DNA of 64,000 bases from Candidatus Omnitrophota bacterium (lineage in GTDB: Bacteria; Omnitrophota; Gorgyraeia; Zapsychrales; JAKLDJ01). Positions 1 through 64,000 of this stretch are shown here, one piece after another. The notes under the pieces are model-generated. The model saw nothing but the letters and a program-made list of their open reading frames with translations. It was not told the DNA's origin and ran no database searches. Location of the stretch: assembly GCA_022703585.1 (NCBI GenBank), contig JAKLDJ010000001.1:310891-374890 (forward strand), read 5' to 3'. A program made the translations under genes and the position numbers. Within the stretch, counting starts at the first letter, position 1; each line of letters starts with the position of its first letter.

Positions 1-1000
1 GGGGGCCTATTTTTTCATATTTCAGGAAAGAGCTTAAGAGGTTTCTTCCTTGGGGATTATCCGGGCTATAATCAGCCAGCATTTCTCTGGTAATCCTGAG
101 GCGGATAACACCGGGTTGATCTTCGACGGGAACAATGTGCTCCTCGCCCCAGGGGACAGGATTACGCCGCAGATCTTCCATGATGGCATCTTCCCACCAT
201 GTTGTTTCTGCGAGGCCTGTCTTGAGATCGACGATTTCTTCGGATTCCTCGCCCTGACCTTCATCGTCCATCATCCCTGTCATCCCCATCATCCCCGGCA
301 GCACCATTACCAGCAGGCCGAGGTCGAAAACAGGGATAAAGGAGAACAGATTCTTTTGGGAAAACTCCTGTACGTCCTGTTCTGGTTTCGGCAATTTCGT
401 GACACAAAGAGTAAAGAAAGCAACCGTGCCATACTTATAGGAAGCCGTTTGAAGCAGCCATTTTAATGCCTCCACACCCACAATCGCTCCTCTACCCAGA
501 GATATTTCGAAACCGCCAAAGCCAGCCTTTTTTCTCAAGCGACCTAAAAGCGTCTCGGCAAGAACTGTCTCTATGGATAATTCATCATCTTCGAGATTAC
601 CTGTTTTATTAACAATACGTCTGTTGTCGCTTTTTCTTCGAACAACATCATCGTTATCGACGTAGTATTCTTCAAATAATCGCCTCCCGCTCTCGAGATT
701 TCCAACGCGTTCCGCTTTGAGCCTGTCCCCAGCGGAAAGCATGTCGCCGATCATCTGATAGATTTGCCCTCCTAATCCCTGCAAGGCCAGATTGGTCCTG
801 ACGCGGTTAAAGTAAATTGTGTCTAATGCTATCGCAATGGAAATTGTTTCATGTTCGTCATTTTCTTCGGTAAGCCGTCTGAGGAAGAAGGCATCGGAGT
901 TGGAAACCACACCGTCGACCTCTCTTTGCAGATAAACATCAACGCGATCTCCGCTCGCATCGGAGATAACGGCCTTGAGGATGTAGCTGTCGCCGCCTCT
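1..1000 (-). other. C-terminal-most module in the window; function unknown; acidic tail
   Basis: I translated 2-1201 codon by codon: ...LALQGLGGQIYQMIGDMLSAGDRLKAERVG...MMDDEGQGEESEEIVDLKTGLAETTWWEDAIMEDLRRNPVPWGEEHIVPVEDQPGVIRLRITREMLADYSPDNPQGRNLLSSFLKYEKIGP. There is no stop before position 1. Confidence 0.5.
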
Positions 1001-37000: not shown

Positions 37001-40000
37001 GAGCCCCATAAAGCCGCTGTTTTCAATTTCTTTTTGGCCGATTTCAGCAAGCCATTGAGCAGGGTATTTACCCTGGTAACCGCCGTTATGCACCGTGTAT
37101 ACGCTGGCAGTCTTCTTGAATTCCTGGCGGTAAATCGTACGCATATACAAAGGCACGAGGGCGGTATGGTGGTCACTGACGTGGATAGCATCCGGCCTCA
37201 CACCTAATTGTTTCATCATCTCCAGCGAACCGCGGGAAAGAAGAACGGAATCCCGGAATTCCAGCCGCATTCTCTTTTCTTTGTTTTCCTCATGCTTGGC
37301 GTAGGCCCGGACAAAGGCTTCCTTGTTATCGGCAACCAGCCAGTAAACGGTAAAGCCATTCACCTGGGCTTTTTTGGCGCGCAGAATTTCTATGCCGGAG
37401 TTAAACGGAATTTCAATAACCACACCCGTGTCTTCGGCGCCGTAAGATTCCATAACCTTGGCAATCGACGCAAAGCCGGGGAGGATAATACTGACCTTGT
37501 TGCCCAGCTTGGATAATGTCCGGAAATATTCATAGACATAATCGGCCTGACCGCCGACTTTTTCTCCTATCCTGGCAGCTTCCGTGGCAATGCCGACAAC
37601 CTCACCTTTGAATTGCGACACAACGCCAACCCGGCCGTTACCGTCAGGCAAATCAGCCCAGCCGATATTCCCCTGGGCGTCAACAAATTTGAATGTATAT
37701 TCAAAGTTTCTGATAGGCTTTATATCGACCCGGTAAAGCGCGCGGCCCCTGCTATTGCGGACAAAGGTCGCCTCGGTATCCGCCCATTCCCACGGATTCT
37801 TCATGTTGGAGTGCAAAAATGCCTTTAAGGTACCATCGTTGGGGCGGTTGGCATACGCTGTAAGCGTAACCTTTTGGCCAATCTTCATCGGGGCGGGAGA
37901 CTTTCTTAAATCGCCGCTTAAAGCACCTAAGGCGACAACCGGCATCATCGGCATTAAAAACAGGAACGCCCCCAATTCGGACGTTTGTGTTCCCTCATCA
38001 GTCTCTCCTGGCACGGCTCGCGGCACCTGCGTCACAAATACTTTTCCGTTGCCATACGGGAGGCTCGCCCAAGCAAAATCACCGTTGAGGCCTTCAAACT
38101 TCACGGTCCATTCGAAACTCCGGGCTGGGAATATCTTCAGTTCGTAGACGGCGCGGCCTTCAGCATTCTCGACGAATGTGAACGGCGTTTCAAAATCCTG
38201 CCACCGGCCGCTGATATCGGAATGAAGGATAACTCTCCGTGTGCCGGTTGCGTCAGGAAGATTACCATAGACCCTTAAAACGAGTCCCTGGCCTGCCTCA
38301 ATTTCGTGGCGCGCTTCTTCGAGGTCGCCTCCGAAGATGTTCGGGATGCGCCCTGCCAGGGCCTTTTTTGCCTCTTCGACAACCGTGTTTTCAAAAGCCA
38401 TTTGTTCCTCTTCGCTTCGGCCGAAAACATGCAGCGCTTCTTCGCGGGTCTTGACGCCTGCCGACAATAACCTGGCATATTCCTCTTCGGCAGCAATGAG
38501 CAGGGCATCTTCATACCGGATAGGACTATGCGTATGATATTCTTGCGGATCTTTAGGTAAGAACGGTTCCATATTTTCTGACACGGGAAGAGTCGGCAGG
38601 ATCTCCATGTCTTTCCTCGGGAATACAACGAACACGTACGGGCCGTAAGGATGCCGGGCCGGCGCATAGGGGAAGTAATGGGTCGAGGCCCATTCATAAT
38701 TTTTCGTTAAGGACGTCGGATTAGACCTGTTGCTGTAAGGTGTATTGAGCAGGGCGCCGCGGCGGTTGAGGACAACAGCCAGAATACCCTTAAACCCGAC
38801 ATTCCTCAACAGAAGTCCGGCACCTTCTCTTTGTATCCTCTCCCGTTCAATGTCATATCTGTACTTGTACGTTTCATAAACGCCAACATTGTTTTCTCGG
38901 TCAACAAAAGTCAGCTCAAAAATCATCTCGCCAAAGTCCGAACTTTGATATACCACGGTCGCTGGCGGATTACCGGACGGAACGAGCAGTGTCCCTCTCG
39001 ACCAGATCCTGTCCCCGACGGCATCAATCCTATAGGCGCGCGGTTGACCGTGCCGGTTAAGGATGATCACATCGCCGCATCCCCACAATTCGACCGGTTT
39101 ATTGCAGAACCTGCCTTCGTTGAATCGGGCGATTGTCCTTAAGATAGCGGCAAACCATTTTCCCGGCTTTAACTCACCATTTTTTGCGTTAGCCAGAATG
39201 AATTGCACAGATCTAAAATATTCCGGATAGGATATCATCCTGTTGATCAGGCGATTACTCGGATTACCTGTGCGGCCCAAGCGGTCAATCTCATAGGAGA
39301 GGAAAATCTTGAAGGCGTTATAAAGATGACTCAGGCGGGCCTGATCAGCGGCAAGTTCAGGGGATTCCGGCAAGGTGCGAACGGCGCGGACGTTTACATA
39401 GACGGTATTCCCGACCCCCTGGAGTAATGGGCCGGCCTTACCGTGAATCTCAAGAGCGAATTCTCTTTCTGTCTGGTTCATCATCCAGTCAATCAGAAAA
39501 TCTTTCTTCGCATCAAAACTGAAGGCCAAGGCGTCGAGGATTCGTTCGGCCTCAGGAAGAGCTGTGCCTTGAGGGAATGTGACGGTGATTTTATCATCGG
39601 TTCTTTGCACTCTCACCGGGAAGGTAACCGGTTCAAAGCCGGGAACTTCCTTCGCCATTACAGGGAATATCCCTTCCCAAATATTCGCCTCGTCCCGGAC
39701 TTGGCCCAGGAAGAAACTCGCCATCGACATAAACGGAATAATCGGCATCAAAGGCATGAGGGCGTTAAGAGATTCTTCAACAACCGACACTTCGCGCAGG
39801 CGGCGCTCAAAAGCGCTGCGGGCTTCGCTTAAATCTAGCAGATTGAAGTGGGGTAATTCTTCCTTCAGGAAAATGCCATGGCCGGCTACTTCAGGAACGC
39901 CATAACCGGTAATCATCCCTTCCGGCTTTGCCTTTCCTCTGGGGAAGATGTAAAGCCGGGTATCGGCTCCTGCCTGTCTTGTTACCCAGAGAATGTCAAT

Positions 40001-43000
40001 CATGTCTTCCGGCATGTGGAGGGCTTCGATTTTTCTGCTGGCGCCATCGACGATTTGCGCACGGGTTCCTTCGTAGACAAAATTCACGGCAGGCCAATTA
40101 TGGACACGGCTGGCATTATCAGGAGTCCGCTGAGTAAGTTCTTTTTCAACAATCGGGAATTGACCGAAGTAACCCTGGAAGTGGGCGTGCGTGCGAATGC
40201 TCCGGCCGGGGCCGTTCCAGAGAATGGACGCGCCGGGCATCAGTTCTGAAAGAATGGCCCCTATTCTGGAAATTTCGTTTAAGGACGGATAAACATTATG
40301 TTTGCGGTAAGAAATAACAAAGCTGGGCAATTCTTTCTTGTCATCGGTTCCCCAGAAGAACGGATTAACGTAGATATCCCAATCTCTTAAATTCGTATGG
40401 AACCGGCCTAAGTTAACGCCGCGTTCAACCAGCGGCATAAAAGCGCCGCAGAGATTACATTTGTTTTCGTCAGAATGCTGCTGTTTGAACAAATTCTTTA
40501 AAACGGTATCCCGGTAAATCTGTTTCAGCGCCAGATAAATGCCGTAGATGCCGTTTTTGCCGACATTATTAAGGATGTTGGCGAGGGCTGACTTTTTCTC
40601 GAGCGATATCCCTTTGGTGTAATTGGCGCCGCGATGGGAAACATTCACCAGCCGGTAATCTTTGCCGATCGGATAAATGGTAATACCTTCTAACTGTTGC
40701 CGTGTAATAAACCCTGCCTTCATTTGCTGCCGGGTAAGGTTCCGATAGGCTTCTTCAATAGTCGTGCCTTTGATCGGTCTAACCGCATTGCGCAACTCGC
40801 GAACCTTGCCGAAAAGAATGGCGAGAGCGGCAACAGCGGCAAGGATGGCGAAGCTCACGGGTTCAAACACTAATGCGGTAACATCTTCGCCGGGATTGGT
40901 TCCGTCGTTCCTGGGTTGATTGCCTTGTGCGGCCGGATCCGATGCCACAATGGGCCAAATGTTATACATAGGGAAGTTATCGCGGACATCCAGTGATTCA
41001 ATCAACGCCTTGGGCGCTGTCAAGACTCCCTTAATATCAAGTCGATCAAATTGGTCAACAGTCAAATCAACGATGAGCGTTTGCCCGGCGACATCGACCT
41101 CGGCATAACTATGGCCTTTACGTTCCGACTCCTGGCGTCTGATATAACGCGCCGTAAGACCGCTTTGCTGCGCCAATGTGACCGTGTGCTTAGCCCCTTC
41201 GGCACAAACAAACGGAAAATCATCATCAAACTCAAGAGACCTGCGAAGATCAGGAATAGTCTTGGTATCGTTCCAATGCCGGAGGATGACGTGCGTATCT
41301 CTTAAAATGGCCGCGAAGGTTTTAATCTCCCGCGCTTGGGCCGGAGTAACTTCAGAGTTTTGTTCGGCAGTTATCCAGCGGCTGAAAATGACGGCGAATC
41401 GTTCCGGGGTTAAGCTCACAAAGTCTCTGGCGTTAAAGTTTGCCGGTACCGGTGCATCAATATCTGAGCCTACCTCAGAAATATCCTCTTTCACGCTCAA
41501 TCTTTGGGCAACGATTTCTCCATCCTCAGCCTCCGGCTCTCCAAGATCAACTATATCTCCCAAGACTTCCATAATCTTTCTTTGCAATGCGGCTGTAGCG
41601 TCGGATGGGCTCTTGACCGGTAAAAAGCCTGTTGCTCTGTCAACAGTCACAAATAAAGAGTTTAAAAGAATCGTAATATCCCCCAAAAGGTAATCATCGG
41701 GTTGATAGACCTTGGTAATAAGAAGTACTGAACCTTTATAGGTTTCTTTGACGGTCCACTCTCTGCCATCAGACAACGTGACCTTTCTTAGGATACCGTC
41801 TTTCTCCTCCACTCTCCTCATCTCTTGACTCTGGTCAACCAGGGCCCGCAGTTCTCTATTATCCGTAATATCTTCGGTAATCTCTTTTGGCGCGAGATAA
41901 GGAAGATGCATTTGTTTCTTCATTGCACGGATTCTCTTGACCAATTCGTTTCGCGGTAACGCACCCATCCTGTGTAGAATTTCTTCAGCTGTTAATATCC
42001 CTTGTTCGTAGAGGGGTTGTTCTTCGGCGGAGATATAACCAAAAAGCTTGAGTAAGGCAGATACCCTCATAACATAGGTTGCGGTGTTAAACTCAGGGAT
42101 GGCATTTTGGTTGAACCCGTCTATAAAACAGAAACCTTCGCGCAACTGGTTACGCCCATCAATGGAAACAACCGTCCCGCCGGCCTCCGGCTTAACCGTA
42201 AACTCATACTGGTCCGTAACATCTCTGCCGTCTTTATACGCCCTGATGTAACCGGCAAAGTTGAAGGCAGGATAGTCGGCAAAGGCCTCGGCCGGAGTTA
42301 AGTCTATTCCCCCTATGCTGATAAAATCCGGGACATCAATGGTTAAGTCTAAATCACTAATAGTGTCTTTCACCGTGTCGCCGTGGGGAACAGATCCGTC
42401 CGGCCCCCGCCTTTTTAATGTCTTCCAGACCTCACCCACGACCCTCCCTTCTTTCTTATGGGTCACGGCGATCATCAGGGCTTTTTCGGCGACGACAGCC
42501 AGGACATCCTTGCCCGAGCGATGCAAGAGGCCGATAAACCCGGGATCAACAATCTGAGCTTTGCCTAAGTTGTCAATATTTGAGAAAAAGGCAAAATGCG
42601 CGTTGTCCTTCACCATATCTCTTAGCCTTCCTTCCAGGGCTAACCATTCGATAACGGCAAAATGACCGCCCGGGCACAGATCGTCTTCTCCGGTTACCAG
42701 CTTAAATACTTTTCCGTCCCGGGTCATTTTCTGGAAAACTCCGACCATGTAAGGCCTGATTTTAGAATTAAAACCGGTTTTCGATAAATACCTCATAACC
42801 GAGTTCTGGGTAGAATAGCTGTTAGCAAGATAAACCGGGATTGCAGTTTTATACTGTTTCTCCATGTAGCGAATATGGGCAAGCTTAAGATCGATAAACG
42901 TCCGCCCCTTACCGGCCCAGTTATCGATGATGGTAAACAAGGCTTTCACTGTCCCCCCGAATCGTGTGGCCAGGCCGCCATTAAGGACAACCTGGGCAAC

Positions 43001-46000
43001 CCGGTTACGTACCCTGATGGTCGCCTCGCCAAATGCCCTGTCCCCCGGGGTAATAGCAGCGTAAGACACCATGGAGGCATCTTGTACAGGCTGTTGAGCC
43101 CTCAGTTCAAGATTACCGATAAGAGGATCTTTTTTGCTTTTAACGTTCTCGATAACCCCTGCTTGAATAGCTTCAAATTCTTCCTGATTACCGGAACCGC
43201 TATAGTCCCGCTCTACCAGAAGGTGATTTTGTAATTCTTCCGGAGAAGAATTTTCAATCGCATCTGCCCCCAAAACATACTTAACAACAATGGGTTTACC
43301 GCCAAGAATGAAATAGAAATAGGTCGTCGCGGGATAGCCTGAAGTTTCCCTGATGACGATCGTCGAAATCGGGGCATGCCACTTGAAGCCGTATTCGGCA
43401 AATTCAGCCTGCAATAAATCGTGTATTTCTTCAACGCCCATCCCTTCCCGATTCAACGCCTCAAGGCGCAGAAAGATTTTTTTAAGAAAATCATCTGACT
43501 CAGAGGTAGTAATCGAACCAAATAACGGCGGAACAAAGGCAAGTACGGTGGCGGAACTAAGAGGCGTGCTAAAGAGGACGGTGGCAGCGAATAAGGCGGC
43601 AGCGATAATCAGGATAGCGGGCCCACCGCGGATACCGCCCTTCTTGGCCATCCAGTCGCGCACGGTTGAGGAAGCATCTTTGGTATTGCCTAATTGCCCC
43701 AGAAGCAGAATGGTCGGCATAATCATCATCGGCGCCAAATTCATCAAAGGCATGATGGCGTTTAGAGGCTCTTCGGGGGCTTTGGGCGCCTTGCCGGCCG
43801 GGTTGGCGGGCGCCTTCGGCGCAGCGGGCGTGTTGTCGACGGCTGGGCCTTTTTGGGTTAAAGGCGTGGTTTTGATGATTTCGAGGCGTTCGGGAGAATC
43901 AACGAACCATCTCGACTCATAATAATCCTCTATGTCATAATGTCCAACCTCAGGTTCATATCTAACTTCAAAATCATAACCTTGTTCTCGTATTTCTAAT
44001 GCTCTCTTCAAATAAAGATATAATAAAGAGGATCTATCCGTCGGTAAAGATTGCTGCATCTTCGCTAACACTTCAGAAACTAATTTGGCTTTTTTGCCGC
44101 CAATCGTAATTATAGATTCGGCAACTTCGAGAGAGGGTTCTTCCATCAACAAATTCCATAATGCTTCTTCTGCTATCTTATCTCCAGCTTGACCGCGAGC
44201 TATCAGCCTTCTCTTAGCTTCTGTCTTCTCTTCGGCAACCTTTTTCTCATGACGTCCAATGAGAGCACCAATGATATATATTACGGTAACGATAGCGGCA
44301 ATCACGCCCGCGATCAGCGGAAGGTCGGCGTGGACGGATGTAGAGCTGGGCCGAGTTTTGGGTAAATGTGACATTCGTGCATCATAAGTCTTAAATTCCC
44401 CTGTTTTTTCGTCAATAAGCGTCTGTGCAACTTCAGCTCGTGAAGCATTAATATCAGGAACCGTCTTCCAAATCAGGCTATTGGCCCAGGCAACGATTTC
44501 GGCTTTCAGCTTTTCTTGTCTTTTGTCAACCGGGGCTAAATCGACGCGCGACAAATCATTGCCGATGTTACTTACAGTTTGTTCCGGATTGTTGGCCAGG
44601 CCGGCAATAATAGCCTTGACTTCCTCCTGGGTTAACTCTAAGTCCTTTATTGGCCTGAAAAGATTTCTCTGGCGGCTAATCCTCCTAATAAATTCTTTAA
44701 ACCTGTCAGGATAATTCTTAACAAGATGCTCTAATGCTGATTCGCCCTTGAGGCCTAATTCTTTTGCCAAAAGACTGTCTTTTTGTGTAAGTAAATCCCA
44801 TTCATAAAAGCCGCCGTTTAAGAGCCGCATGACCGGCCAATGGGTGAATTTATGCAAGACAACAGAAAGGGCACGTTTTTCCTGAGCACTCGTAAGCTTA
44901 AGTTCATTAGCTATTTGATCCTCGGTATAGACAATAGTTTCCGTTTTGCCTTGAAGATGGTTGTATAACTTACGCGTTACTCCACTTTGCAAAAATCTTC
45001 CGCTCCTCACAAGGCCACGGATAACTTCGACTAAGGCAACCGCCCCTAAGCCACCCACGAACAATGTTAAGCTATTAAAATAAACGCCCACAGCCAATGT
45101 CAATACACCCACAAGAAGAGAAGAAATAATAAGCCTGCCCTTAACATTAATTGTCCTGGTTTTATCCGCCGCTTTTTCGCTGTCGTCTTTTTCTTTAGAA
45201 GATGAGAATCTGGATTTAACGGCTGGTATTATTTTCTTCATGGATGAGAGTCTGGATTTAACGGCTGGCATTATTTTCTTCATCTCCGGCATTTCGGGAA
45301 CATTGAAGTCACAGCCATATCTGTTGGCAATCTTTTTCATAATATCAAAAGAAGAATACCATCTATTTACCCAGAAACCTTTAGCCACATCAGCAAACAT
45401 TTCTCGGGAATTATTGTCAATAGAAAATCTCAAGGCCAACGGAAGAATCACGGTTACGTCTCCCAAGCCAAACATAACAGCCAAGGCAACAGTCAAGAAT
45501 CTCTCTATTGTTTTTTGGAATAAGAACGGCGCCGAGCGGGTATTCTTTGCGTTTGATATGCCAAGACCGGTAAGCATCGCATATATGCCGGCCATGGTAA
45601 AAAGGATAGCCGGATTAACCAAAGTAATGCCAGAAAACGCCATGCCTGCAAGAGCAAGCGTCATAACAAGCGGGCTTATCCAGTTCGTCCTGTGGTTAAC
45701 ATGAATAGCACGGGAATTAAAGAAGTGCGGCCCTACATCATAAGCAAACAAAAGAATGATATAGAGAACAGCGCTTACTAAGAATACCGCCGGATGATAC
45801 GGCGCAACAAAAATAACCAGCGGAAGAAGCGGGGTTGCGATCATCGGACCTATTCTCATGTAATTATAAATCTCTTTGGCGTCTCTTCTGTTAACAGCTG
45901 TTATGCGTGCCGCCATAATAAACACGTCTTTACCCTGGGTAGTATCTCTGGCCACGGCAAAGGCAAAGAGAGGATGCTGTGACGTAGAGAATACCGCCGC

Positions 46001-49000
46001 CGCAGGCTTAAACAAAAGGGCGTTGATAAACTTGAAGAAGCCCCAAGGCGCGCCATACTTGCTGTTCAATAATTTAATCAAGTTTTGTACGATAGAAAGG
46101 GCCAAGACCACGCCTGTCGCCACGAATGCCATGGCAAACGGGAAGGAGTGCGCCGGGTCAATAAATAATGCTAAAGCGAAGACTACAAAGGAAACAAGAT
46201 TGGACACAACCAAGAATTTCAGCCCCCAGAAACCGCCGGTGTTAAACAAATGGGTCCATTTCCATGTCTTCGGAGCTTGTGTACTCATATTAAGAAGCTG
46301 GCCTAACGAATCATGAATCATTTCATAGGCATCGCCGGCGTATTTTGCTTCCGTACCGTAGTCAGATTTGTAATCCGCTACTTTGGCGCCACCCATAAAC
46401 ATAGAATGGTTGTAGGCCACATTGATACCGAGACCTAAACCAAGAAGGGTCAGGGTCAAGTCTTCCGCGTTTCTCGATAAAGGCGAGATACCGTACATTT
46501 GTTCGTATTCTTCCTTATGCATGTATTTACCGTATTCTCCGACCTGACCGGTTTTATTCATGAAAGACTGAACCATCATAGTCCAGTTGGACTCATTAAA
46601 ATCTTTTACTCGGGCGACATCAGAGAGGTATTTATCAGCCACATACATCGGGAAAACCAGGCCCATGACATTTTTGCGGGAAAGCTCGTCCACGTTGTTG
46701 ACAATCCAGAATCCTTCTTCCGGTTTTACCTCCATAATAGCGTCATGGCGGATAGAAACGTCGTAGCGGTAACGGGCAAAATTGGCGATAAGGGTTGCCT
46801 TAAAGATTGCTGTCATTTCCGGCATACCGGAAATACCTTTACGAGAGCCAGTATGCGGCTGCCCCTCATTGGCCAAGCGGGAATAAAAGAATCTGTTTTC
46901 CGGACGATCTCCAATATACGTATTTGATACCGCCCCGCCCAATCCAAATTGTTGATATACAGCATAGACAATAAACTTCTTAGCAACTAATTCATCGTAG
47001 TACAGGTCAAATAAGAGGAATTGTTTTTCATCACCGCCAATGGCAGCAAGAACAACCGGTCGCTCTTCTTTTTCATTTAACAATATAAGTGGTAACCATC
47101 CAGTACGTTTTACCGTTCCGGCCAATTCATCGATTCTCGCCTTTGCAATACCAGCGTCTTCTCCAGCGTTTTTCAAAACCTCAAGAACCTTCTCAGCTAA
47201 CGCTCTTCTCGCATTGCCCGTGGAGAGAGGTCCATAGAGTTCTTTTAATTTCTGATATTCTTCATTATAAAAACTATATTCGGCAACATTTCTAAATCCG
47301 GACGCCTCTTCCTTGAATCCTTCCAGCGTACGATATATTGTATTCATTCGCATGTTTGCCCAATGGATGATCTGCTCAATAACCCATTCGCTTCTTACCT
47401 TTCCAAGATTAGCTTCCAGCTTCGCTCGTAAAATCTTGCCCTCCAGCTGCGTTTCAAACTTGGCATTTCTGACCAGGACCCTTACTTCTGCTTCCAACCC
47501 ATCCTCGTCACCAGCAACACTTAAAAGTTCGAAGGTGTCGGCAAATCTTTCCCATTCATACGGGAATCGATGAACAACCAGGTTGTTAATTTCTGTAGGA
47601 TAAACCGTCTTAGTTTCATCCCAAGCCGCTTGTTCTTCTTGGCTGAGCAAGAGGAATTGTTTTTCCATATCAGTAATAGCGCTAAATATGGCTGTGCGTT
47701 CAGTTTTCGTTAATGCTGCAAACGGCAACCATCCTATATGTTCTATTGTTACGGCTAACTCATGAATTCTTTTCTGTCCAATACCGGCTTCTCTTAAAGC
47801 ATTAAGAACATTTTCGGCTAACGTTTTCTTCGCATCACCGTTAATGTCAAATTCGAGGAATTGTTTTTCCGTATCAGTTATAGCGCTAAAAACAGCTGTG
47901 CGTTCTGTTTCCGCTAACAATGTAAGCGGCAACCATCCGGTATTTCTTATTTCTTCTTCAAGCTTATTAACCCTTGATTTTTCAATACCGGTTGCTTTCA
48001 AAGCCTTAAGAACCTTATCAGCTAACGCTCTTCTCACGCTATCACTTGCCGGTCTCTTTGCCGCGGTCCAATTGATAAGGCCAGGAATACCCTTTATCTT
48101 TTCTGATACCTTCTCCCTATCATAGCTGTACATGAAATTTTCGTCCCAGCCGGCATGATAAAGCGTCATGACCGGCCTTTCGGTCCATTGCCTAAAGGCT
48201 TCCGGCGTATCCAAATTGTAGAATGCACCCAAGATTCTTCTAAGGCTGTCGGCAAATTTCTCATCGCTTCCTTTGGGGGTAACCACTTCGAATCGTAGCA
48301 GCCTATTTCTTTCCTCTCTACTCATTGTATTATTGCCGGCCCTGGCCAAAGCGGTAATTTTATCTGCCCAGTATTCTTTAGCGCGGGCTTTCTTGGTTGC
48401 CTCTTGGTCCCCAAATCCCTTAACGCTAAAATTATTAAGATGCGCGTTCTGATAAATTCCGATCATGCGCGTTTGTCTCCAGGCGAAGAGCCCCAAGACA
48501 ACCGCAATAATAACCGGAATAAACATTGTTGCTGTTCCGGTAGCCGAAGCTGTCAACGCGGCAAAGTTGACAACGACATATCCTCCGCCGATAAGAGCTG
48601 CCGTCGCGCTAAATATACTGAGAATCCAAACAGCCGCCTTGTACCCTTTGGTCGAAACTGTCTTACCGTTTAATGCTGCTTCCACAGCCTTTATGGCATG
48701 CGGTATTTCAAAATTATACTGGATATAGAAGCGGCGTTTTTCTTCAATCACTTTCTTGTTGATTATCATCTGACCGATATACATACCGCCGCGAATCATA
48801 AAGAGGAACGATAGCCCCAGGATGATATGCGCCGGAATGGCAATCAGTGGAAGAAACTTCCATAAGTTTTCCAGGCCAATCAATCCGGAAACCTGGGCCA
48901 ACATCGGCATGCTGAAGAACCAGGAGAAAACAGGAATCATTACATTAACCAGGGCCGGCCAGGATAAGGCGTATTTGCCATTAGCAATTTTGTCTAAGAA

Positions 49001-52000
49001 AATCTGGCATACGAATACGCCGGCAATCGCCATTAACCCGGTTAACCAGAGCGGCAGTCCGAATAGGGCATTAACACCAACGAATATTCCCATGCTAGTG
49101 ACAAAGGTTCCGATTTCCTGAAGTTTAGGTATTATGCGACCAAATTTTAAATAATGCTTGGTGCCGAATTCATCAGCTTCTCTCATTGCTTTCGGCCAGG
49201 TCCTCTTGGTTTCTTCCGAAGCCTGGTATTTGCCAGTATTAATTATCTGGTCCAACATGCCGTCAAAGAACCCGACCGGCTGCAACAAAGACTTAAATTT
49301 CCTGTATTCATCAGTCTCTTGTCTCGCTAATAATCCTGATCTTACGAGTTTTAATGCCAACAAAGACAACAGGATAAGCGCTGCGGTAGCAATCGTATTT
49401 AATGAAATACCGAAAGGTAAAATACCAAAATACGATAATGCCGCCGCCGCAAACCAGAGGATTAACGATGCTATTAAAGATTTATATTCAAAGAAATCAA
49501 TCGCACGCTCAGTTGCCCTCTTCCAGTTGATAAACTTGGTCGGCCGGGTAAATACCGGGAAATTGCCCTCGATAAGGCTCTTCCTTAAGATAGGCCAGAA
49601 CTTTCTATCGACGATTTCCTGGATAATCGTGTTATGCAAAGTAGGATTATTTTCACGGCTAATCTGGAATACCTTGCGGATAAATTTATATGCATCGGGA
49701 AAAGAGAGTTCTTTTAATGACTCTACTGATTTTAACATTTCCTCCAAGAGGGAAATTTCTCTCTCCAGCGATTGTTTCTTTTTGTCATCCTGTTCTTCCA
49801 CCAACTTCTTTCTTAAATTTTGTAATATCGGTGAAAATGCTTTAAAATTATCCGTTATCTTTCTCAAATCTTCCAACGTTAATCCGGCCGCTTGTAACGG
49901 CTCATCATAATCAAAGGTTTGCAGAATACGGGTTAAGAAAAATTCTTCAAAGTAAATGCGCCAAATCCAATTATCTCCCGCTCCTTTCCTGATTTTTCCG
50001 GAAATTTGGTCATACTGAACGCCAAGGATGTAAAGGATATTGGAGCCTTGATTAACAGCTTCAGGTATTAACTCCGCTGGCTTATTATTTTGGTCTAATT
50101 CTGCGGCCAATTTCATTAAATGCCTTGTCCAGGCGATTTGACACTGCAGGTTACCGCTGAAGAATTTCAACATTTCTCTTAAAAAGGCCTCTTCCAGAGG
50201 AATTTCGACCCAACCCTCGTATGCCTTAATGCCTTCTGCTTCAAGGCCTCTAATCTTTTCTTCCAATATCCTCTTTTTATTTTCATCTTTTTCCATTTCC
50301 AAACTTTCCTTCAGCACGGCTAAAATTGCCTGTTTGTGACCGCTATCGGCACGGGCACGCTCAACTTTCATCCAAAGGCCGTTATTCCATGAAGCCGGCA
50401 TGGCTGTTACATTTCTTGAATCCTGATAACCCCAAACCTGTTCGCTGGCTTCTGTTTCATCGGCCAAACGGGTAATCAATTGGGCAATCAGTTTATTAAT
50501 CATGTAATCCAAAACATTAACAGCCCTATTCCCGCGCAGGGTATTACTCTTGTCAATAACTTGTACAGTTATGCCCCCGATTTCCCAAGTGCCTTCTGTT
50601 TTATAGGCTAATCCTCTCCTAGCGGCCATTTGTAAAAATATCGGGCGGTAAATAACAGCGACCATCTGTTCAAAAATCATGGCTCCGATTGCATCCATAT
50701 TCATTGCTGATGGAATATCTGTCCTGGCGTTTATCGCCCTGATTGTATCTTTTAAAGCTTCGAGCGGCTCCGGAACCTTAGTAAACCCTTCTGCTCTCGC
50801 CTTAATAGCATCTGCAAGGACTTTCTTCAAACCTTTAGCAACGTTTTTGATTGTTGACGGATAAAAGACATCTATAACCTGCTCGGCTGCTGTGATGTCT
50901 CTTGCTGAATCAATATTTCTCATAAATTCCGCCAAGCCTTTTATCTCATCGGACTTGGAAGGAATGGTACTTGTTCCCGCTGTTTTTGTACTGTCCTCTT
51001 TCTTGGAGGTTTTTCTTAACAATTTATATAGCCAGGCAAACCAGGCTAATAATATCGCCGCGCCGACAATCATAACAACCGGCTTTTGAGCGCTTCTTCG
51101 GGTATCTTCATATCCGTTAAGAAGCGCCTCTCGTCTCTGGTTGGCCTCTTGAAGGTCTTGTGAATCCCCTTTGAGCTGTTTATTGTGGCCGTTGACATAT
51201 CCCTGAATATTCGAATCATCAGTTTCCTGATGTTCTATGCCGGCCATGCGCTCATAAGCCCTGACGGCTGAATCTTTAAAGTGACGCGTATATTGAGCAA
51301 ACCAGCTGTTGCGCCCGAAGCGGTCGTAGGCTTCAGGGCTGTATCCGCCCTTGACGTCATCGGTTGCGGCACGATAATCCGGCAAGCCCTGGACATCTTT
51401 TGTTTCTTCGCGGAATTTATTCCAGTTGATTCTGATAAGTTTTCCGTTAAAGTAGGTTCTCGGCACAACACCCTTGAAATCAAAAATCCAATCAGGATGG
51501 CTCTCTTTATATGCCCTGTAATCCGACAATAGCTTCAAACCCTGGGGTGTCGCATCGATTTCGTAGATATCAACAACGCCCTGCAGATACGCGTTCTCAC
51601 CATTGGCCATAACTATTTCTCTCGGAACCGCAATGGCGACCTTGTGAGGCTGTTCCTGGGATAATTTGACACCAAATTGATTCTTGATAATTCCCGTATT
51701 GCTGGGAACTTCGTAATCGTTATAGTAGAGCCTTTGTTCCTGAGGTTCAAAACCAACGCCGCCGTAGGTGTTATAGAGAAGGCGGCCGTCTCCTAACCTC
51801 AAGGCCATCTTCTTTAAAGTGCGCTCACCTTGTTTGGGACGCCGGTCGACAACCTTGTATTCCAAGATCGGTTGGCCCTGCGGCCCTTTGACAACCTCTA
51901 AGTCCGACGAATGGGCAACCCAGTTACCATCGAAGACTCTGACTGAAACATCATTCTTAACCACGACCTGGCTATAGGCATTGATGTCTTCATCGACATT

Positions 52001-55000
52001 TCCTTCTGCGTCAAACTTAACATCGTAAGCGTAGCTCCCGCCGCCAAGGCCCATCTGGGTTAAGAATTCGGTTCCTAAATATTCTTCGGCGGTATTATTA
52101 TTGTAATCGACAAAACTGATGGTGCGCGGCGTGCCGTCCGAGAATTGGGTAACCGGGTTAATGTGGTTGTAGGCCTCGACACGGGCAAAGAGATTGCCTT
52201 CGGCATTCTTGATTTCCTTGTAGGATTTTTCCACAAACTTAAAGTGCTTAATCAGGCTTCTGTTGGCTGCCAGATAATCATAGTTTGTATACGCCGGGTC
52301 GTTCATAACAATATGATCCGGCAAGATTAAGGCATCCGGCCGAAGAGCCTTTTTGACCATGTAGCTGACATAACCCGTTGTGTCATCAATCCGTGTTGAG
52401 TTGGCATAGACATAACCGTGTTCGTGGCCTAAGGAGTCGGAAACCGTAACCAAGGAGTACTGGGCAATGCCGTAGCGGCCGACATCTTTCTCGTCATGGG
52501 CATCTAACGGATCGAAAGAATAAAAGCTGTAGAATTTAAGGTCGCCGGGGCGCATTTCAAACTCACCATTTTGGTTACGGTGGCCAGCCCATCGCTCGAT
52601 AGTGCGACCCTGCGTTTCTTTAATCTCCTTGGTGTCGATAGCGGCTAACAGATTATTGGCCCAAATCTCCGCGTGCCGCAAGGAAACTATCCTGATGGAA
52701 TTTTCCTTAAGCAATAAATCTGTCAGGCGTGAACGGCTGATCGCGCCGGTATTGTCATTCAAAAGATGATTTTGACCGTCAACTAATAATTTCTTCTGTC
52801 CATCCGGTTGCAGCATATAGGTCTCAACCAGCGTGGCAATATCCAAAAGCCTTAAATATTCTCTTGAATACTCTTCCCGGTTTGATTCGGCAATAAAGTC
52901 GCTGTAGCCTAATTCCTCCACGCCGCGAGGCCGGAAAGATGCTCTAATGGTTTTTAGCAAGTCCTCCCTTTGTCCGATCGTCGTCTTTTGCAAATCCGTT
53001 AAGGTCGCAAGCGTAATCTCGGTGCCATCGCCGTAGGTACCTTTTTCTTTTTGCTCAAGAATACCATTTTCTGCGCCGTTTCGTATTTCGGCAAAATAGA
53101 GTTCGGGGCGAATCATATCTCTTACGATGTAAACCTTGCCTTCGGTCATACCATTGCCTAAAATCCGCAGAGGATCCTGCTTGCTCACTAAAATACCGAC
53201 CGAACGGATTCGGCCGATGGTTCCCGTGACTATATCCCCTTGGCTAAAGTCATAATCATAATCAACGCTACCGACCTCTTGATTTTGAATATCTCTTAAG
53301 ATAAATCGTATGCGGTTCATAGCCGAGTTAATCTGGATGAGCTCATCACCGGTGTTGGTGTCAAAGATAGAAACCCAGCCCTTCAGAGGCATATAGTCAG
53401 CCATGCCTGTGCCTCTCACGGCGGTGATGTCGTAGACCTGCGGCCGATATTCATTCTGATAGGAAAGTCCGGTGACAATAGCCTCAAACCCTAATTGCTT
53501 AACTTTCGGTATAAGATTCGCAATCAAGCGTTCCTCATTCGATGACCAGCGATTACCCAGGTAAGCAAATTCAACGCTTTGATCATTCAAGGCTCCAGCG
53601 ACAAACGTCTTTTGGCCTACTTTATTGCCGGTTAGGTGACCTTTGACATCATCGGCATAAATCGGCACGTCGAATACCGTGACAACACCCAATGGTCTGT
53701 TGAAGAGGTTTGTGATTGCTAACGGCTGGCCTTTAACGGGCTTAATAATACCGTCTTCTAATCTTTGGGAATGAGAAAGAACCCAAGGCTTACCCCTTGA
53801 GCTCATGAGAGTCACATTGAAATAAACACCTTGGTAATCTTCCAAGGCATTCGTAAAATCAATGGCCGTAATTCTGCTCACCTGGTCATCAACGGCAATA
53901 GCACCAAGATTGGACTCTCTGTTAAAGGCATCGGTCCACTTGACTTCCAGAGAATTTCTGTCAAGGCGCCCTCTCTCGACCATGTAGTACTTGTTAAGAT
54001 GCTGGATAACTTCACCGTTAGGAATCCTGATGGCAACTCCGTCTCGATTGAGCAGATCCCGATCATACTGAGGTGTGTTGAACCCGGGTTGGCTCAAATC
54101 AAATCTGGTTATTGTCTGTTTATCGTAATTGATCTCTCTGATCAAAATGTCGCTATTTCTGACATACGTCCTCGCGGCCTCCAAAATCAATGAGCGGTCT
54201 ACAGGATTAATCCTGTAGGTTTCGGCGACAGTAACAGGTATACCGGTTTCTGCATCGACGCCGGCATTATGACTCTTGACGATTCTCACGGTTTGCCCGT
54301 CAGAATTAACCAGGCGAGAATTAACCGGTGCGTTGCTTTGACCAAGCCAGCTGTCGACTACCTGCTGATAGGATCCTATTAAGGGGGGCTGATCAAGCTC
54401 AATGCTATTGACCGTTGACCGCGCGTAATAACCGGCATTAATAATAGGATAGTTTTGAAGGCCGGTATAACCGCCCCAAACAGCCGTTGTCGTCACCGGA
54501 AGCTGTTTGTCGGCGGTGGGCGTGCCAATGGTCTTATTGAACGTGGTCACGACCTGCCCGTTATGCAGATAATCGACGTGAGCAGACGTCCTTCGGTTAG
54601 TGCCGGAATAATATTCCACATAGTCTTGCACGGTAATACGGCCCGTGGTATTACCGTCCCGGTAATTAAAGTTCCTGATTCCGGTAACCGGACGGTTCTG
54701 CGCGTCATACATCTGGGTGAAGACTTCGCCTTTAACGAAATCGCTAATCCGGGCGGTTAAGCGGCCGTCTTTCCAAACATAGTGATCGGCGGTGCGGTTC
54801 TTTCCATTGGTCCTGGTGTTAAAGACATCTCTTTCAAATTCATAGCCGCCGCGATAATGAGGAACCTGGCGCTCGTTGCTGCTGTCGGTGGCCTCGCGTA
54901 ACAAGCCGTAAGCGTCAATGGTTTCCCGGACCCTCATCGAGGGTTCGCTTAAGTAATCAAAATCTTCTCTGTTATTTTCCCAAACCTTCTTCGCTTCGTC

Positions 55001-58000
55001 GAAATGGGCCTGGCCGCGGGTAATCAATGAATCCGTGGCCTTGTCTTTGGTTGTGCTGGCAGAGGTCAAGTTAACCCAGTCGCGGGTGGTCGTCGTAGAA
55101 ACAACGCCGTTATCGCGCAATACTTCATCGCCGGTATGAAGATCATAGGTAACCGCCGCGGCAACACCGCGATTGTCGATTGTGTCTTCCGTCGTCACTT
55201 CCCGGCCGTTGAAGTCTTGTTTGCGGATAAATCCGTTTTCATCCAGGCGGGTGAACCCTTCCTGGACTAACTCGCCGTGGGTCTTGATTCTTCTGGCCGG
55301 TGTGGTGCCGATCCAATAGCCGTAACGGGTCTCGGCGCCGTTGCCTTCATGGAGATAAACCGGCGCGCCGTACAGATCCCTATACATAAGGTTGGACATG
55401 ACCGCTTGGGTGTCGCCATAATTCATCGTCACCGCGTCTTCGAAGCTACGAACCTTGTTACCAGTCATGTCAACAGCTTCCACGATAGCCGGAACACCGG
55501 CATTGTTGGTGCGGCTGCCGAGCTCTACTTTACTGCCTAACGTCTTAACATAATCAAACGCGTAAGGGCCGTAGAAGTTGGAAACAATTTCGCCGGTGGC
55601 AAGTTTATGGGTTTCGGGATAGACGGTAGTTTCACCACTGACCGGATCAATTGCTGATGTGGCCGCACCGTTATTGAGATCGATCTTGACATTGAGTGTC
55701 GTTTCGGCAACTCTCCTGGCGCTCATACGGCCCTGTTCATCGATAACCGGCTGACCGGCCTCGGTGGTATCGGCATAGGTCCAGGTGATGTAACCGGTGG
55801 ACGGCTGCAGCTCGCGGCTGACCAAAGCGACATCGTCGTAGAACTTCAGGTTGTCGACAACATTGCCGTTAGCGAGAACTGTCCTCAGTTTTCTATCCGG
55901 GAAATTGGCATCGATGTAATCGGTCCAGCTGCGGCCGGCCTGGTCGCCTAAATATTCGGTTGATTTGGATTCGAACAAACCGTTGGTCAATACCGGCACG
56001 CGCCAGCTGCTGGCATCCGCGGTTAAATCACTTTCATAGCGGTAGGGCACGGCAACGCCTTTAACCAGGGCGCTTTCCTGATAGGCCGCATGACGGGCGA
56101 CACGGCCTAAGAAATCGCTAAAGACCGCCCTGGCGCCGGTGGTTTCGTTAACCGATTCGAGCGTGGCGCCAAAATTCTTAGGCGACACCACAATATCAAA
56201 ACGCCCGGTCGCTTTGGTCACAGTCGCTAATTGATTCATATTCGCGTCATACACCGGTGAATAAATTCCGGGAGCGACTTCTTTGGTCTGCAATCGGGTC
56301 GTTCTCTGAGCGCCGTCGGCGCCGGTAGTAATGCCTTCAATATTAAACATACCGAAAGCGTTGGGCGCCTGTTGGCCGTTATCGGCAGTAAAGAATTCGG
56401 GATATTCGGTTCTGGCACCGGTTAAAAGATTCTCGACGTAATTAACTTTACCGAAGGCACTGTTGATATCCACAACTTGCAATTCGCGAGACATAACCTG
56501 ATTGCCCAAATACCAGGTCACATCCTGGCGCAATTCACCGCTACGCGGTTTGCTGTCCGGACGAGTCACCATTTCCACCAAGCGGATGGTTTCGTTGGTA
56601 TCTTTCCTGACCAAGTAGACAGTGGTGCTGCTGGGAATCACGTTGTACTGCGAGGCCAAGGTCAGGCCGTATTGTTCAACTTTAATCCAGTTCAGGCTGC
56701 CGTTATACTCGGGTTTTTCGTAAAGGTAAAAACCGTTCTCAAGCTCGGTAATACCGCCTAAGTAGGCGCCGGTTTCTTTAGCGTAAACACGGTGCTGAAT
56801 CATAACCGGTTTGCCCCCAGTCACGCCAAAGCCATCCGCCTTAGCCCCGTCAAGGATGGTAAAGTCAACGTAGACTTTGCTCAAATCTTCGCTTAAGCCC
56901 TTGGTAATAATCTCGGCTAAGGCAACATCAGGGGCATTAGCTAACCGGACATAACCGCCGTCAAAGATCTCCAGTCCGTTAACCAAAGGTTCATAGCGGC
57001 CGAAGCGCCCGGTGGTCCAGCGGACGATTTCTTCGTTGCCGATTCTTTCCGGTGTTAAGAAGGATTTGGCATTAACCACCGCTAAGCCGAAATCTTCGAA
57101 ATTGGCATTAGCGTTATACGGATGGCCGACGAGTTCGGGTAACCGCAGCTTCATATCCGGGGCTAGCCTCAAGCTTTCGACAAAAGACGGCAGGTCAGGA
57201 TTGGCATTAATCAGATTGAGCCAGAAGGGAATGCCCTGGGTGGGGCTGGTTCTATCACCGGTAAGGTTGCCGATGCCGCGACCTTGGGTTAAGAAATCCA
57301 ATATCCGTTCGTTGCCGGGCGTCCTTAACAAATCGAAGAGTTCAGCGACCTTTTCCAAAGTGGCCATGAGTTCCTGTGGGCTGTCCATTTTTCTCATCAA
57401 TTCAAATTTGTAATCGGCAGTAAGATATTCTTTTAGGCCGGGCTTAAGAGAATTGTAAATAAGATCCGATAAGACCTGAGTATACGAGTTTTCGTCCCTG
57501 TCATTACCGGCGATAATAGCCGAAGTCTCCCCTAAATGCTCGACTCGGACATTGCGTATTTGCGCCATATCGGCAATGGCCTGGACCAGTCTCGGGTTAG
57601 AAACAATCTCGTTCCAGGTCTGGTTAAATCTGATCTCATCGCTAGCGGAGAGAGTGCTGAGCAGCTGTTTCTGCCATCCGGTATTAATATTGAAGGTATA
57701 ACCGCCGCCGCCGAAGGCAAAGTCAATTAACCTCTGGTAGAACGGGCCGGCATCATCGGGCAGCGTGTAGTTATACAGATGAAGGATGGTTTCGCCGTGA
57801 TCTCTGCGTATCTCGTTTAATTTCCTGACCGAGCCCATAATGCTTAATTTTCCGTCCGGGCTCGGGTCGCCATCGAAGGTCTGATCCGGAGGAATAAGCT
57901 TGGAGACGATGGTGTGGCTGTTGGTGCCCGTGAATTTTATGAATTCCCGGGTAATCACGGCGCGGTGGCCGCTGGGGAGCTTCGCGGCGCGGACATGGCT

Positions 58001-61000
58001 GTCAATGGTGGACCGGAAAATATCAACAACCCGTTCTCCGTGATAATCATTGAGGTCGGGCGTCAGCGTAAAGCCGTTCTCGGTAGAATTATTGAGTATG
58101 TCAAAGAAGATGGTGCCGCGTAATTCCGCATCCGGGAATAAATTGTTAAACAAGGTCGCTGCCGCCTGGCCCGGACGGGTAAGGTCCTGGACAAAGGTCC
58201 GGTAATTCTTCAAATCAACTTTAAGGTCGTTGACGTCATAGAGCTTGTTGTGGATCGGGACTTTATGCTTGGCGATGAATGCTCCTAAGAATATGCTCCA
58301 GCCATAAACCCAGGCCTCCTGCCGTTCGTCGAGAGCCATAAATCCTTCTTCAGCCTGCAAGGCAAATCGCAGCCAGCCATTATTCTCGTAGACGTAACGG
58401 TTAGCGCCTTCATTGACAGGGGCAATCTCTATTTCTCCATATTTGAATTTAAGATCCTCAAAGGCTTCCGGATCGGTAACGATGGCATGGAAATGCTCAA
58501 AGGTAGTTACGATGCTGGACATACGGGTAAAGATCAACGGCAAACTCTTTTCGATGATATCGGGATACATAGGATTCGGAGCCCACCAGCCATACTCCCT
58601 GCCGTCGTGCTTGAGCAATTGTTCCGTCTGGATAGCCCATTTTTCGAAGCCCTTAAACTGGTCAATCGGCGCCGGGTTATCGCTGTCAAGAATTTGAGCC
58701 CAGGCACCGCGCAGCGACGGGAATAAGGTTAAGATCATTTCTCTCTGCGCCGGTGAAAGGCGAAGGACCAGGTCATAGCGGTTGGAGGCTGAGGTATATT
58801 CGTGCAGAATATTTTCAAATTCCCGGCCTTGGCTTAACGGCGCGCCGGGGATATGAATACCGGGCCGGTTATGGGCGGCAAAATCAGCGTCATAGTCGGC
58901 ATTATCACTGCCGTCCGGATTCTTAGGGTTCCATAAGCCGATTCCCGGATCAAAATACGAGAAGAGGATTGACCCGGCACGGGTATTGCCGTAGAGGAAG
59001 TCGGTATCGATTCTTCCTGCCCTATCATAAAAATAGGCTGTCGGTAAACGATGTAGTGCGGCAATCGCGTGACGCAAACCATCCTGCTGGTCGGCCTTCA
59101 TAAGAGTAAAGATCGTGCTGTTATCCCTTAAAAACAGCCGGGTCGCGGCTTGGGCCGCTTCTATCTGGGCGTCCTCACCCGGGCCGGCCGGCTGGACGTA
59201 CCAGGCCAAGGGGTTTCCGTCTTCATCAGTCTGGATATGCGCGGCATCAGCGTAGACTTTATTCCAGACCGGCTGGATATACTCGCCGGTATAGGGGTCT
59301 CTCAAGAATTTGCCGCCGTTATCGCGGTCATCGTTATCGGCATCATACATGTTCAGGTAATCAATTTGATACTGGGTCGGGTTTTCGGTATCATCGGCCA
59401 AGAGGATTGCGACCTTGGCGGCATCAACAGCTGCGGACTTCGCAAACCCAAATTTTTCTGCCGCGACCGCCAGAGGAGAATAACCTTCCTGCCTTTGCTG
59501 TCTCATGGAAGCAATACTGGCGCGCCCTTCGCGGATGGCCTTGGTAAGGCCGGCCAGGTTATGATACCATTCATCAACCGTTCTAAAGGCCTTGTCTCTG
59601 CCTATCAGCCCCATAGCAACCTCTGTCAAGGCCTCCCCGCCAACTACGGCGAGATTCGGATTGAGTTCACGGATACGGCTGACCTCTGCCTCATCTTCCG
59701 GTGTAGCCAGCGTCGGAAATACGCCGGCAGCCTTGGCAACAGAACCTTGGTCCGGGATTAAGCTCCTTAAAACTTCCGGCATATAGGAAGTAGCGTCTTG
59801 CCGTGCGGGCGTACTGGATAAATCCTGTAAATTCGAGTTTTGCGCGTTGCGGTCAGAGGCTGATTGTTCCGGCGCGCCAAACAGGCTCCTGATGTCGCCG
59901 TAGAAATTGTAGGCCGCACTAATCCGGAGATGGCCCCCATCTTCCGGAAGTTGAGATACATCCAGTTGCAACTTTTTATAATCAAACCCGACTTGCCAAC
60001 CAGCTTTACCATCGTTAGGCTGGACCACCTCACCGCTAATTTTAACCGGGCCGTTGGTGTAGGCACCGTTAAAATACTGCGCCCCCGACAAACCTTGTGA
60101 ATAACCGGCGGTAAAATCGTGGAATTGCACATTGGCGCCCTGGTTGATGATTTCTCCGTCTTTGCCGTTGGCGCTAAGGGTTACATTAAATCTCTGGCCG
60201 AGGATGAGTTTTGCTCTCGCCTCAAACCGGTCCTGTGCGTCCTGGCTAAAACGCAGATTCGGATGAAGAGGAAGCGTGCCGAGTTGCGTATCCAGAGAAA
60301 GCCGCTGAAATTCAGTCCCGATATTATCAACTCTTCCGATAATCCTGTCTACAGAGCTGGCGGCGACCGTGATGGTAGCGTTAGAGACATAAGAAACAAC
60401 ATTATCCATATTGCTGTTATACGCCGGACGATTGTAGCGGGTTACGTCAAATGTCGACGAAAGAATATCCCGGTTGTGTTCACCGGTAAGCCAACGGGAA
60501 CGTAAGGCAGCCCTGAGATCAAACTTGAGCAGGTCATCGGTATCGGCCGGGGTCCGGTTAATATTGAGGTCTAACCGCTGACGGCCCCCGAATAAACCGA
60601 CGCCTTTACCAAGGCTATAACCGTAACGGGCCTCATCACCGTTAAATAAATTCTCCGCCCTGGCGCTGAATAATCCGTTACGATAGGTGGCATCCCCGCG
60701 CCAGGGATGTTCTTTATCTTGCGGATTAAGAAAAGCGTAAAAGTCAAAATTATCACCAGAGCGCATACCGAGTCCGTAGGTACCGAAATACTTTTCGTAA
60801 GAACCGACGATCTCCTCTTCAGGAACCATATTTAATATTCCGTTGAGGTTATAGTAGGTTTCCAGTTTTCCGCTGAGAGTGACCGTACCGTTGTCATTAA
60901 CATGAACGTAATCCGGCGTGAAAAGTACATTGACCTGGTTAGTAAGGTGCTCATTCATCAGCAGCCATCTAACGTCAAACTGTTCGTAATTTCTATTGGC

Positions 61001-64000: not shown

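Follow-up and report, generated by a model that had tools for sequence, protein, structure and literature searches.

A stop-free giant reading frame of Omnitrophota type with a predicted M23 peptidase module and a beta-rich block that lacks RHS/YD-repeat signatures

The giant genes of Omnitrophota, found in tiny bacteria that depend on a host, are among the longest known in any organism, and very little about them has been tested experimentally. Their products, of the 'Archaeovorin' type, combine many transmembrane (TM) helices with enzyme domains, glycosyltransferases and peptidases among them, and with SLT-type murein-directed domains, and RHS-like antiparallel beta-helix tubules of ~1,500 amino acids (aa) have been described in their unannotated TM-free regions (West-Roberts et al. 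2023, 10.1101/2023.11.21.568195, section 10 for the tubules). Giants of the 'class 1 multi-enzyme metabolic cluster' are rich in PF08323, PF00534, radical SAM, HD and HEAT domains, and the catalogue from which this class comes records TM helices or a signal peptide for 94% of long proteins, with singletons making up 80% of its sequence clusters (Nielsen & Lui 2026, 10.64898/2026.06.07.730766). Here we describe a stretch of 64,000 nucleotides (the window) from a Candidatus Omnitrophota bacterium (assembly GCA_022703585.1, contig JAKLDJ010000001.1, positions 310,891 to 374,890), the minus strand of which is occupied by a single reading frame. With moderate confidence, we read it as an internal part of a giant membrane-threaded gene of the Omnitrophota type, in which an M23 peptidase module and an RHS-like beta block are carried by a TM-free, likely external segment.

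The frame runs without interruption from 64000 to 2 and comprises 21,333 codons with no stop, open at both ends; in the six-frame count, each of the remaining five frames of the window contained 672-1,487 stops. Because the frame is stop-free and neither of its ends is closed, the gene extends beyond the window and exceeds 64 kb, the window being an internal piece of it. Residues are numbered from the high end of the window (aa i = 64000-3(i-1)), and the region 53300-61700, which had been flagged in an earlier note made from the sequence alone, corresponds to aa 767-3567 of this numbering. That note had proposed an N-proximal M23 peptidase domain, a long RHS/YD-repeat-like region and a LysM-like module, with the flavour of the giant genes of predatory or epibiotic uncultivated bacteria. 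The giant gene, the M23 domain with intact zinc ligands and a beta region that is loosely RHS-like all stood up to analysis, the giant-gene flavour being borne out by the length of the frame and by homologs that are Omnitrophota open reading frame (ORF) fragments, but the assignment to RHS/YD-repeat proteins and the LysM module did not. The term N-proximal holds relative to the window and not for the N-terminus of the protein, since the ORF is open at both ends.

The Peptidase_M23 profile of Pfam (PF01551) matched aa 807-918 over positions 2-96 of its 96, with 35.9 bits and an E value of 8.7e-9 when a 700-aa query was used and with 31.8 bits in a 5,000-aa query, both above the gathering score of 28.7 bits. 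The M23 signature that had been noticed at 61261-61330 is contained in the peptide GNAAPANNPKSGMQGHVHVRVRENGEVVDP (aa 889-918, window 61247-61336, minus-strand frame). Alignment to solved enzymes accounted for every ligand of the HxxxD...HxH scheme: H808-DGV-D812 aligned to HnGtD of ShyA and HsGtD of 6jmx, H863, within LHLG, to LHLS/HLSK, and H904-V-H906 to HLH of 6jmx. We take H863 to be the equivalent of LytM H260. Similarity at the level of whole sequences is low, ShyA (6ue4) and 6jmx being the best PDB sequence matches with 16.5 and 13.9 bits, and two PHROG metallo-endopeptidase families gave weak, supportive matches. The module looks like an active enzyme and not like a degenerate LytM-type regulator, and from its sequence it is probably a discrete, divergent peptidoglycan endopeptidase, predicted to be active. 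It shares with members of family M23 (LytM, lysostaphin, ShyA, MepM, Csd3) the full-length Pfam profile, the HxxxD, the middle histidine and the HxH; in contrast to them, it is embedded ~800 aa from the start of the window frame in a protein that comprises at least 21,333 aa, is not accompanied by a LysM, OapA, SH3b or coiled-coil partner domain, carries an insertion of ~8 residues ahead of the HxH and has a very low pairwise similarity to solved enzymes (16 bits). As for the LysM module of the earlier note, no Pfam match to LysM (PF01476) was found in the 21,333 aa and three LysM-core patterns (GDTLxxIA-type) had 0 matches in the ORF. M23 domains are unmentioned in the main text of West-Roberts et al. 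2023, Nielsen & Lui 2026 and Seymour et al. 2023, and LysM is unmentioned in the main text of the first two. Beyond the M23 module, at window 59800-61000 (aa ~1000-1400, minus strand), the protein has an alternating-pattern sequence rich in Gly, Tyr and Asn, such as YGYSLGKGVGLFGG and RISAAYNFYGDIRSLF, which recalls the strands of outer-membrane beta-barrels and gave no match to hidden Markov models (HMMs) or the PDB; a PDB sequence search with aa 930-2400 returned no matches.

The beta-rich block starts ~1,150 aa beyond the M23 module. When 1.84 billion representative proteins were searched exhaustively by HMMER with aa 2401-3600, six matches were obtained in all (E 4.6e-41 to 7.7e-6), and both of the two that carry a phylum-level label are partial, contig-spanning proteins of 'Candidatus Omnitrophota bacterium' (MFC1594621.1 and MDP2940096.1). 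The four long matches (P0001-P0004) fill their own contigs, P0003 nearly so, and are thus fragments of giant genes as well. Their sequences run colinear with aa ~2070 to ~5290 of the window protein, to which they are 21-29% identical, with E values down to 1e-65 for P0001 against aa 3451-5290, and no Pfam domain was found in the relatives of the block. An alignment of five sequences over aa 2550-3320 (A1) revealed conserved SDF(F/L)G-containing units and a hairpin motif, VYRDxKGRxWFxxDGDGT, that reads MYRDLYGAPVYLHEGNGAET in the window (aa 2872-2891) and resembles a single YD unit. When GTDB genomes were scanned with the A1 profile, two loci were found, both with fully open frames and both from Candidatus Omnitrophota, one in the single-amplified genome (SAG) AM-311-J20 and the other in a metagenome-assembled genome (MAG). 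The SAG locus is colinear with aa 2211-5999, through both conserved blocks (Table 1) and on into the next TM cluster, and the other locus is colinear with aa 2069-3316. The A1 profile had no match among metagenome contigs, and a word-indexed protein search with aa 701-3700, the UDPGP module described below and the A1 profile returned nothing. We take these last negatives to reflect insensitivity of the search and not absence of relatives, because P0001-P0004 are present in its own collection and went unreturned; it also gave no match for a query with a Pfam domain at E 2e-47. One of the six relatives, P0005, a 562-aa JGI protein, shares with the block just one unit of ~98 aa (window aa 2670-2766, 34% identity), beyond which it has a TM segment and then a long coiled-coil, Gly-rich tail resembling a phage tape-measure protein. 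This architecture suggests that the ~100-aa SDFFG unit is a mobile module.

None of the sequence signatures that define RHS/YD-repeat proteins was recovered from the flagged region. Searches in overlapping 700-aa pieces (Pfam for aa 1-5200, NCBIfam for aa 501-4700) gave no match to RHS_repeat (PF05593), YD-repeat or RHS-core models at E<=10, and no such match was seen at E<=0.01 across all 21,333 aa. No Rhs, Tc-toxin or teneurin chain was returned from PDB sequences either by phmmer with aa 2401-3600, where a chance match with E=1 was the only one, or by the A1 profile (best E 0.64). E. coli RhsA, used as a positive control, has 10 YD-like motifs in 1,377 aa, aligns to itself with E values down to 1.5e-11 and contains the core motif. 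The 21,333 aa of the window protein contain three copies of the loose YDxxGR-type motif, of which one lies in the 54541-54860 segment; the beta segment has 1 YD-like motif per 1,300 aa, and the hhalign self-comparison of aa 2351-3650 detected no internal repeat (best E 0.38). The RHS core autoproteolysis motif PxxxxDPxGL, even in the short form DPxGL, is absent from the 21,333 aa, and no toxin or PAAR domain was found in the window protein. Comparison of the family profile with RhsA by hhalign gave a probability of 0.5% and an E value of 0.12; its best segment, non-significant, puts the VYRDxKGRxWFxxDGDGT hairpin in register on a YD unit of RhsA. Because these tests failed while the RhsA control passed the motif, self-repeat and core-motif tests, membership of the flagged region in the RHS/YD-repeat proteins is rejected at the sequence level. 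The YD-repeat-like beta units that the earlier note had reported at 54541-54860 are modelled as consecutive beta hairpins, as described below, but they do not form YD repeats. Likewise, the surface-toxin role that an RHS shell would have implied found no RHS core, toxin domain or closed-shell model to sustain it. What the block has in common with RHS/YD proteins (E. coli RhsA, Rhs effectors of the type VI secretion system (T6SS), TcB/TcC and teneurins) are long antiparallel beta hairpins, a few isolated Y-(R/S)-D-x-x-G-R-like turns and the top places in the structural search; in contrast to them, it shows neither repeat periodicity nor an HMM match, an RHS core, the DPxGL autoprotease motif or a toxin domain, and no closed shell is evident in its low-confidence model. 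An 'RHS-like' impression in Omnitrophota giant proteins should accordingly not be taken as a sign of an Rhs toxin system.

The AlphaFold2 (AF2) model of the block, computed with the family alignment, consists almost entirely of antiparallel hairpins, including consecutive ones at model residues ~519-625 (aa 3068-3174, predicted local distance difference test (pLDDT) 50-71), in the region of the 54541-54860 segment. A single-sequence AF2 model of aa 2851-3450 reached a pLDDT of 30.7 and was kept out of the fold search. Among the ten top matches of the family-alignment model in the Foldseek search of the PDB, nine were Rhs, teneurin or TcB/C shells (E 1e-9 to 1e-6); beta-propellers followed at E 1e-5 to 1e-3. 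Like the published tubule (10.1101/2023.11.21.568195), the block spans ~1,200-1,500 aa of unannotated, TM-free beta sequence with a predicted run of antiparallel hairpins, and the closest solved analogues of both are RHS, Tc and T6SS shells. From the model and the published description, the block is most likely an RHS-like antiparallel beta-helix 'tubule' or stalk of the kind found in Omnitrophota giant proteins, which would explain its loose RHS resemblance better than an RHS/YD array does.

A Kyte-Doolittle scan (19-residue window, threshold >1.6), which is a crude predictor, marked 64 TM-like hydrophobic segments in the 21,333-aa fragment: a cluster at aa 6-522, none from aa 523 to aa 4303 and many from aa 4304 on. 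The sequence KLLRKTSKK follows the TM-like segment at aa 4304-4322 and, by the positive-inside rule, suggests that aa 523-4303 are located outside the cytoplasmic membrane. Parity counting of TM segments was rejected as a guide to topology: hydropathy predicts such segments too crudely, and a warning has been given that TM calls in Omnitrophota giant proteins are unreliable (West-Roberts et al. 2023, 10.1101/2023.11.21.568195). Along the ORF, Pfam identified two UDPGP domains, starch-synthase GT5 (PF08323) and GT1 (PF00534) domains, HEAT, an NAD-dependent epimerase, a metallophosphoesterase and HD; an HPr-like segment scored 22.9 bits, just below the cut-off, and radical-SAM and GNAT matches were weak. 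At window 5243-43561 (minus strand), these cytoplasm-type enzymes, with UDPGP at E 2e-47, sit between TM helices of the giant ORF, and since their substrates are UTP, NDP-sugars and NAD, alternate loops would face the cytoplasm. The GC content falls to 0.435-0.467 at window 44001-52000, compared with ~0.50 elsewhere; a large part of the TM-rich aa 4300-6800 falls within this dip, which is therefore probably due to the codon composition of hydrophobic residues and not a mark of foreign DNA.

The window ORF resembles the described Omnitrophota giants in the following respects: a stop-free frame far above 20 kb, dozens of TM helices with sugar-metabolism and regulatory enzymes scattered between them, long unannotated TM-free stretches together with a peptidase or cell-wall-directed module, and a beta block whose sole detectable homologs are colinear Omnitrophota ORF fragments. 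It differs from them in that the window fragment has no SecA_DEAD, C39, S8, dockerin or TPR domain and in its identity of 21-29% to the nearest relatives. By these sequence features, we conclude that the window protein is a divergent member of an already known type, the giant membrane-threaded multi-enzyme proteins of Omnitrophota.

How such a protein might work can be sketched from this arrangement. The flanking helix clusters would anchor it in the membrane and the ectodomain would project outward, with the beta block acting as a structural stalk or an adhesive scaffold. The M23 module would cut peptide cross-links of the cell wall, either in the sacculus of a host or prey at the site of contact or in the cell's own wall, to give passage to the huge ectodomain. 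A more elaborate form of this scheme is improbable in our judgement: the M23 module and the Omnitrophota-specific beta-helix block would make up a membrane-anchored, wall-breaching conduit, the former opening the host's or the cell's own peptidoglycan and a hollow beta-helix bridging the two cells, with physical coupling to the UDPGP, starch synthase, epimerase and HPr enzymes along the same polypeptide, so that a single gene would encode a 'feeding tube plus metabolic line'.

Several observations weigh against the interpretation that we favour. The topology is deduced from a crude hydropathy scan, and a naive count puts 20 TM segments between the TM-free stretch and the presumably cytoplasmic UDPGP domain, that is, both on the same side. 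Identity to the Omnitrophota relatives is just 21-29%, and M23 or other cell-wall domains were not found by Pfam in the relatives P0001, P0003, P0006, L001 and L002, all of which end, on the upstream side, before the position equivalent to M23. No sequence close to aa 1-500 was found in genome, viral or metagenome contig collections, and the window contains no taxonomic marker gene. SecA_DEAD, C39 and S8, which are common in the described giants though not universal, had no Pfam match in the window, itself a fragment without the true termini of the gene. The fold assignment of the beta block is weak: the AF2 model is of low confidence (pLDDT 41, predicted template-modelling score (pTM) 0.26), the Foldseek template-modelling scores are just 0.06-0.16, and in the viral Foldseek library phage tail fibres and tail proteins reached E values of 1e-6 to 1e-5 with similar scores. 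Neither a hollow tubule nor the regularly spaced exterior alpha helices of the published one are evident in the model, and it is the published description by which the two are likened.

With these points in mind, other explanations have to be considered. We regard it as unlikely, though a serious contender, that the M23 module is a housekeeping enzyme directed at the cell itself, which would remodel its own peptidoglycan for passage of the ectodomain or help to process the polypeptide, the beta block being a spacer. An analogy is offered by the wall hydrolases that accompany secretion systems and flagella, and intact peptidoglycan synthesis is reported for Omnitrophota genomes. Archaea of the Methanosaeta kind are not known to contain murein, so that on such prey an M23 enzyme would have no substrate. 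It is the archaeon Methanosaeta that the cultured relative V. archaeovorus attacks (West-Roberts et al. 2023, 10.1101/2023.11.21.568195). The same study raises the idea that giant proteins are processed proteolytically, though for C39 and S8 domains, and it interprets the SLT-like murein-directed domains of such proteins as prey-directed, which speaks against a target in the cell's own wall. The present data do not separate a self from a prey target. A part in processing is further disfavoured in that we know of no M23 enzyme that processes polyproteins. As for the beta block, it seems fairly unlikely that it is a generic fibrous adhesin or stalk, similar to a tail fibre or a beta-solenoid and bearing no specific relation to RHS shells or to the published tubule. 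The tail-fibre and beta-propeller matches at comparable scores and the low AF2 confidence are in line with such a fibre, but in the PDB search Rhs and teneurin structures led throughout, with a margin of 2-4 orders of magnitude, and the published description of Omnitrophota giant proteins fits the block.

A divergent but genuine RHS/YD shell that encapsulates or delivers a toxin, with M23 and LysM wall modules, so that the whole would be a surface toxin or adhesin, appears very improbable. The M23 domain that it calls for is real, Rhs cores, teneurins and TcB/C do head the PDB matches in Foldseek, and one hairpin falls in register with a YD unit of RhsA in the single best hhalign segment. Against this stand the complete lack of matches to RHS or YD HMMs and of RHS, Tc or teneurin chains in the PDB sequence searches, the insignificant hhalign comparison with RhsA, one motif and a self-alignment at chance level where RhsA has ten and a strong one, the missing DPxGL, toxin, PAAR and LysM signatures and the template-modelling scores of ~0.1, by which the shell is largely refuted at the level of sequence. 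Finally, it is scarcely conceivable that a chimeric assembly, or sequencing errors that joined several genes, produced the giant ORF as an artefact, with the M23 domain coming from an ordinary small gene. The empty word-indexed search with aa 701-3700 and the lack of relatives of aa 1-500 in contig collections would fit an artefact; however, zero stops in 21,333 codons cannot come from error, independent Omnitrophota SAG and MAG contigs show the same fully open, colinear architecture, and M23 is flanked by in-frame linkers, with no start/stop or intergenic signatures around it.

If the M23 module is the endopeptidase that its motifs predict, it would offer an experimental entry into these proteins, as it is one of the few parts, small and discrete, that lend themselves to expression in isolation and to tests on bacterial sacculi, and such an assay would directly test cell-wall degradation during predation or episymbiosis. 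Since the nearest relatives that 1.84 billion representatives yielded are 21-29% identical to it, the window sequence also adds diversity to the alignments that could resolve the beta-helix fold. The coordinates of the features are given in Table 1.

Table 1. Position, strand and supporting evidence of the features of the giant reading frame in the window
Feature	Window position	Strand	Evidence
Giant ORF fragment, gene >64 kb	2..64000	minus	Stop-free frame and embedded Pfam domains
N-side cluster of 7 hydrophobic TM-like segments (aa 6-522)	62435..63985	minus	Kyte-Doolittle scan
TM-free stretch of ~3,800 aa (aa 523-4303), holding the entire flagged region	51092..62434	minus	Kyte-Doolittle scan
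TM-like anchor (aa 4304-4322) ending the TM-free stretch	51035..51091	minus	Kyte-Doolittle scan
Peptidase M23 domain (aa 807-918), between low-complexity linkers	61247..61582	minus	PF01551 and alignment to ShyA (6ue4) and 6jmx
HxxxD zinc-ligand motif, H808-D-G-V-D812	61565..61579	minus	Motif and alignment
Conserved catalytic histidine H863 (LHL)	61412..61414	minus	Alignment
HxH motif, H904-V-H906, after the longer-than-usual loop TGNAAPANNPKSGMQG	61283..61291	minus	Motif and alignment
Conserved beta-rich block (aa ~2070-3320), no Pfam domain, 21-29% identity to Omnitrophota giant-ORF fragments	54041..57793	minus	Homologs, colinearity, alignment A1, AF2, Foldseek
Second conserved block (aa ~3440-4105) without known domain, in colinear order in the same Omnitrophota relatives	51686..53683	minus	Homology
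'YD-like' segment (aa 3047-3154), successive long beta hairpins predicted, single YDxxNR-type motif MYDAQNRPV	54541..54860	minus	Pattern and AF2

Internal duplication was apparent in the protein. A module of ~740 aa that bears the UDPGP domain is present twice, at window 41339-43561 and 33806-35959 (minus strand), the copies sharing ~80% amino acid identity and 82% nucleotide identity over ~1,970 nt. A second, older duplication of ~460 aa links window 12542-13908 with 28373-29754 (aa 16698-17153 and 11416-11876) at 30-49% identity, and shorter internal repeats pair aa 5318-5450 with aa 5593-5700 and aa 8558-8675 with aa 8696-8813. In addition, the motif (T)LAAF-x-PG-x-E-(I/L)-(F/L) occurs in 7 copies at window 16400-33913 (aa 10030-15867, minus strand), where 0.7 were expected from shuffles (maximum 4). 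The copies are preceded by an acidic linker and followed by a short hydrophobic stretch, and the one at aa 13556 precedes the Rossmann motif of the epimerase by ~20 residues. PGxE was not found in the relatives of the beta block, whose sequences stop short of the corresponding region. In its pattern the motif is reminiscent of sorting signals of the PGF-/PEP-CTERM type, but it is internal to the protein. It looks like a signal for module boundaries, membrane insertion or processing, and the copies could mark where the giant product is processed or inserted and in this way divided into modules.

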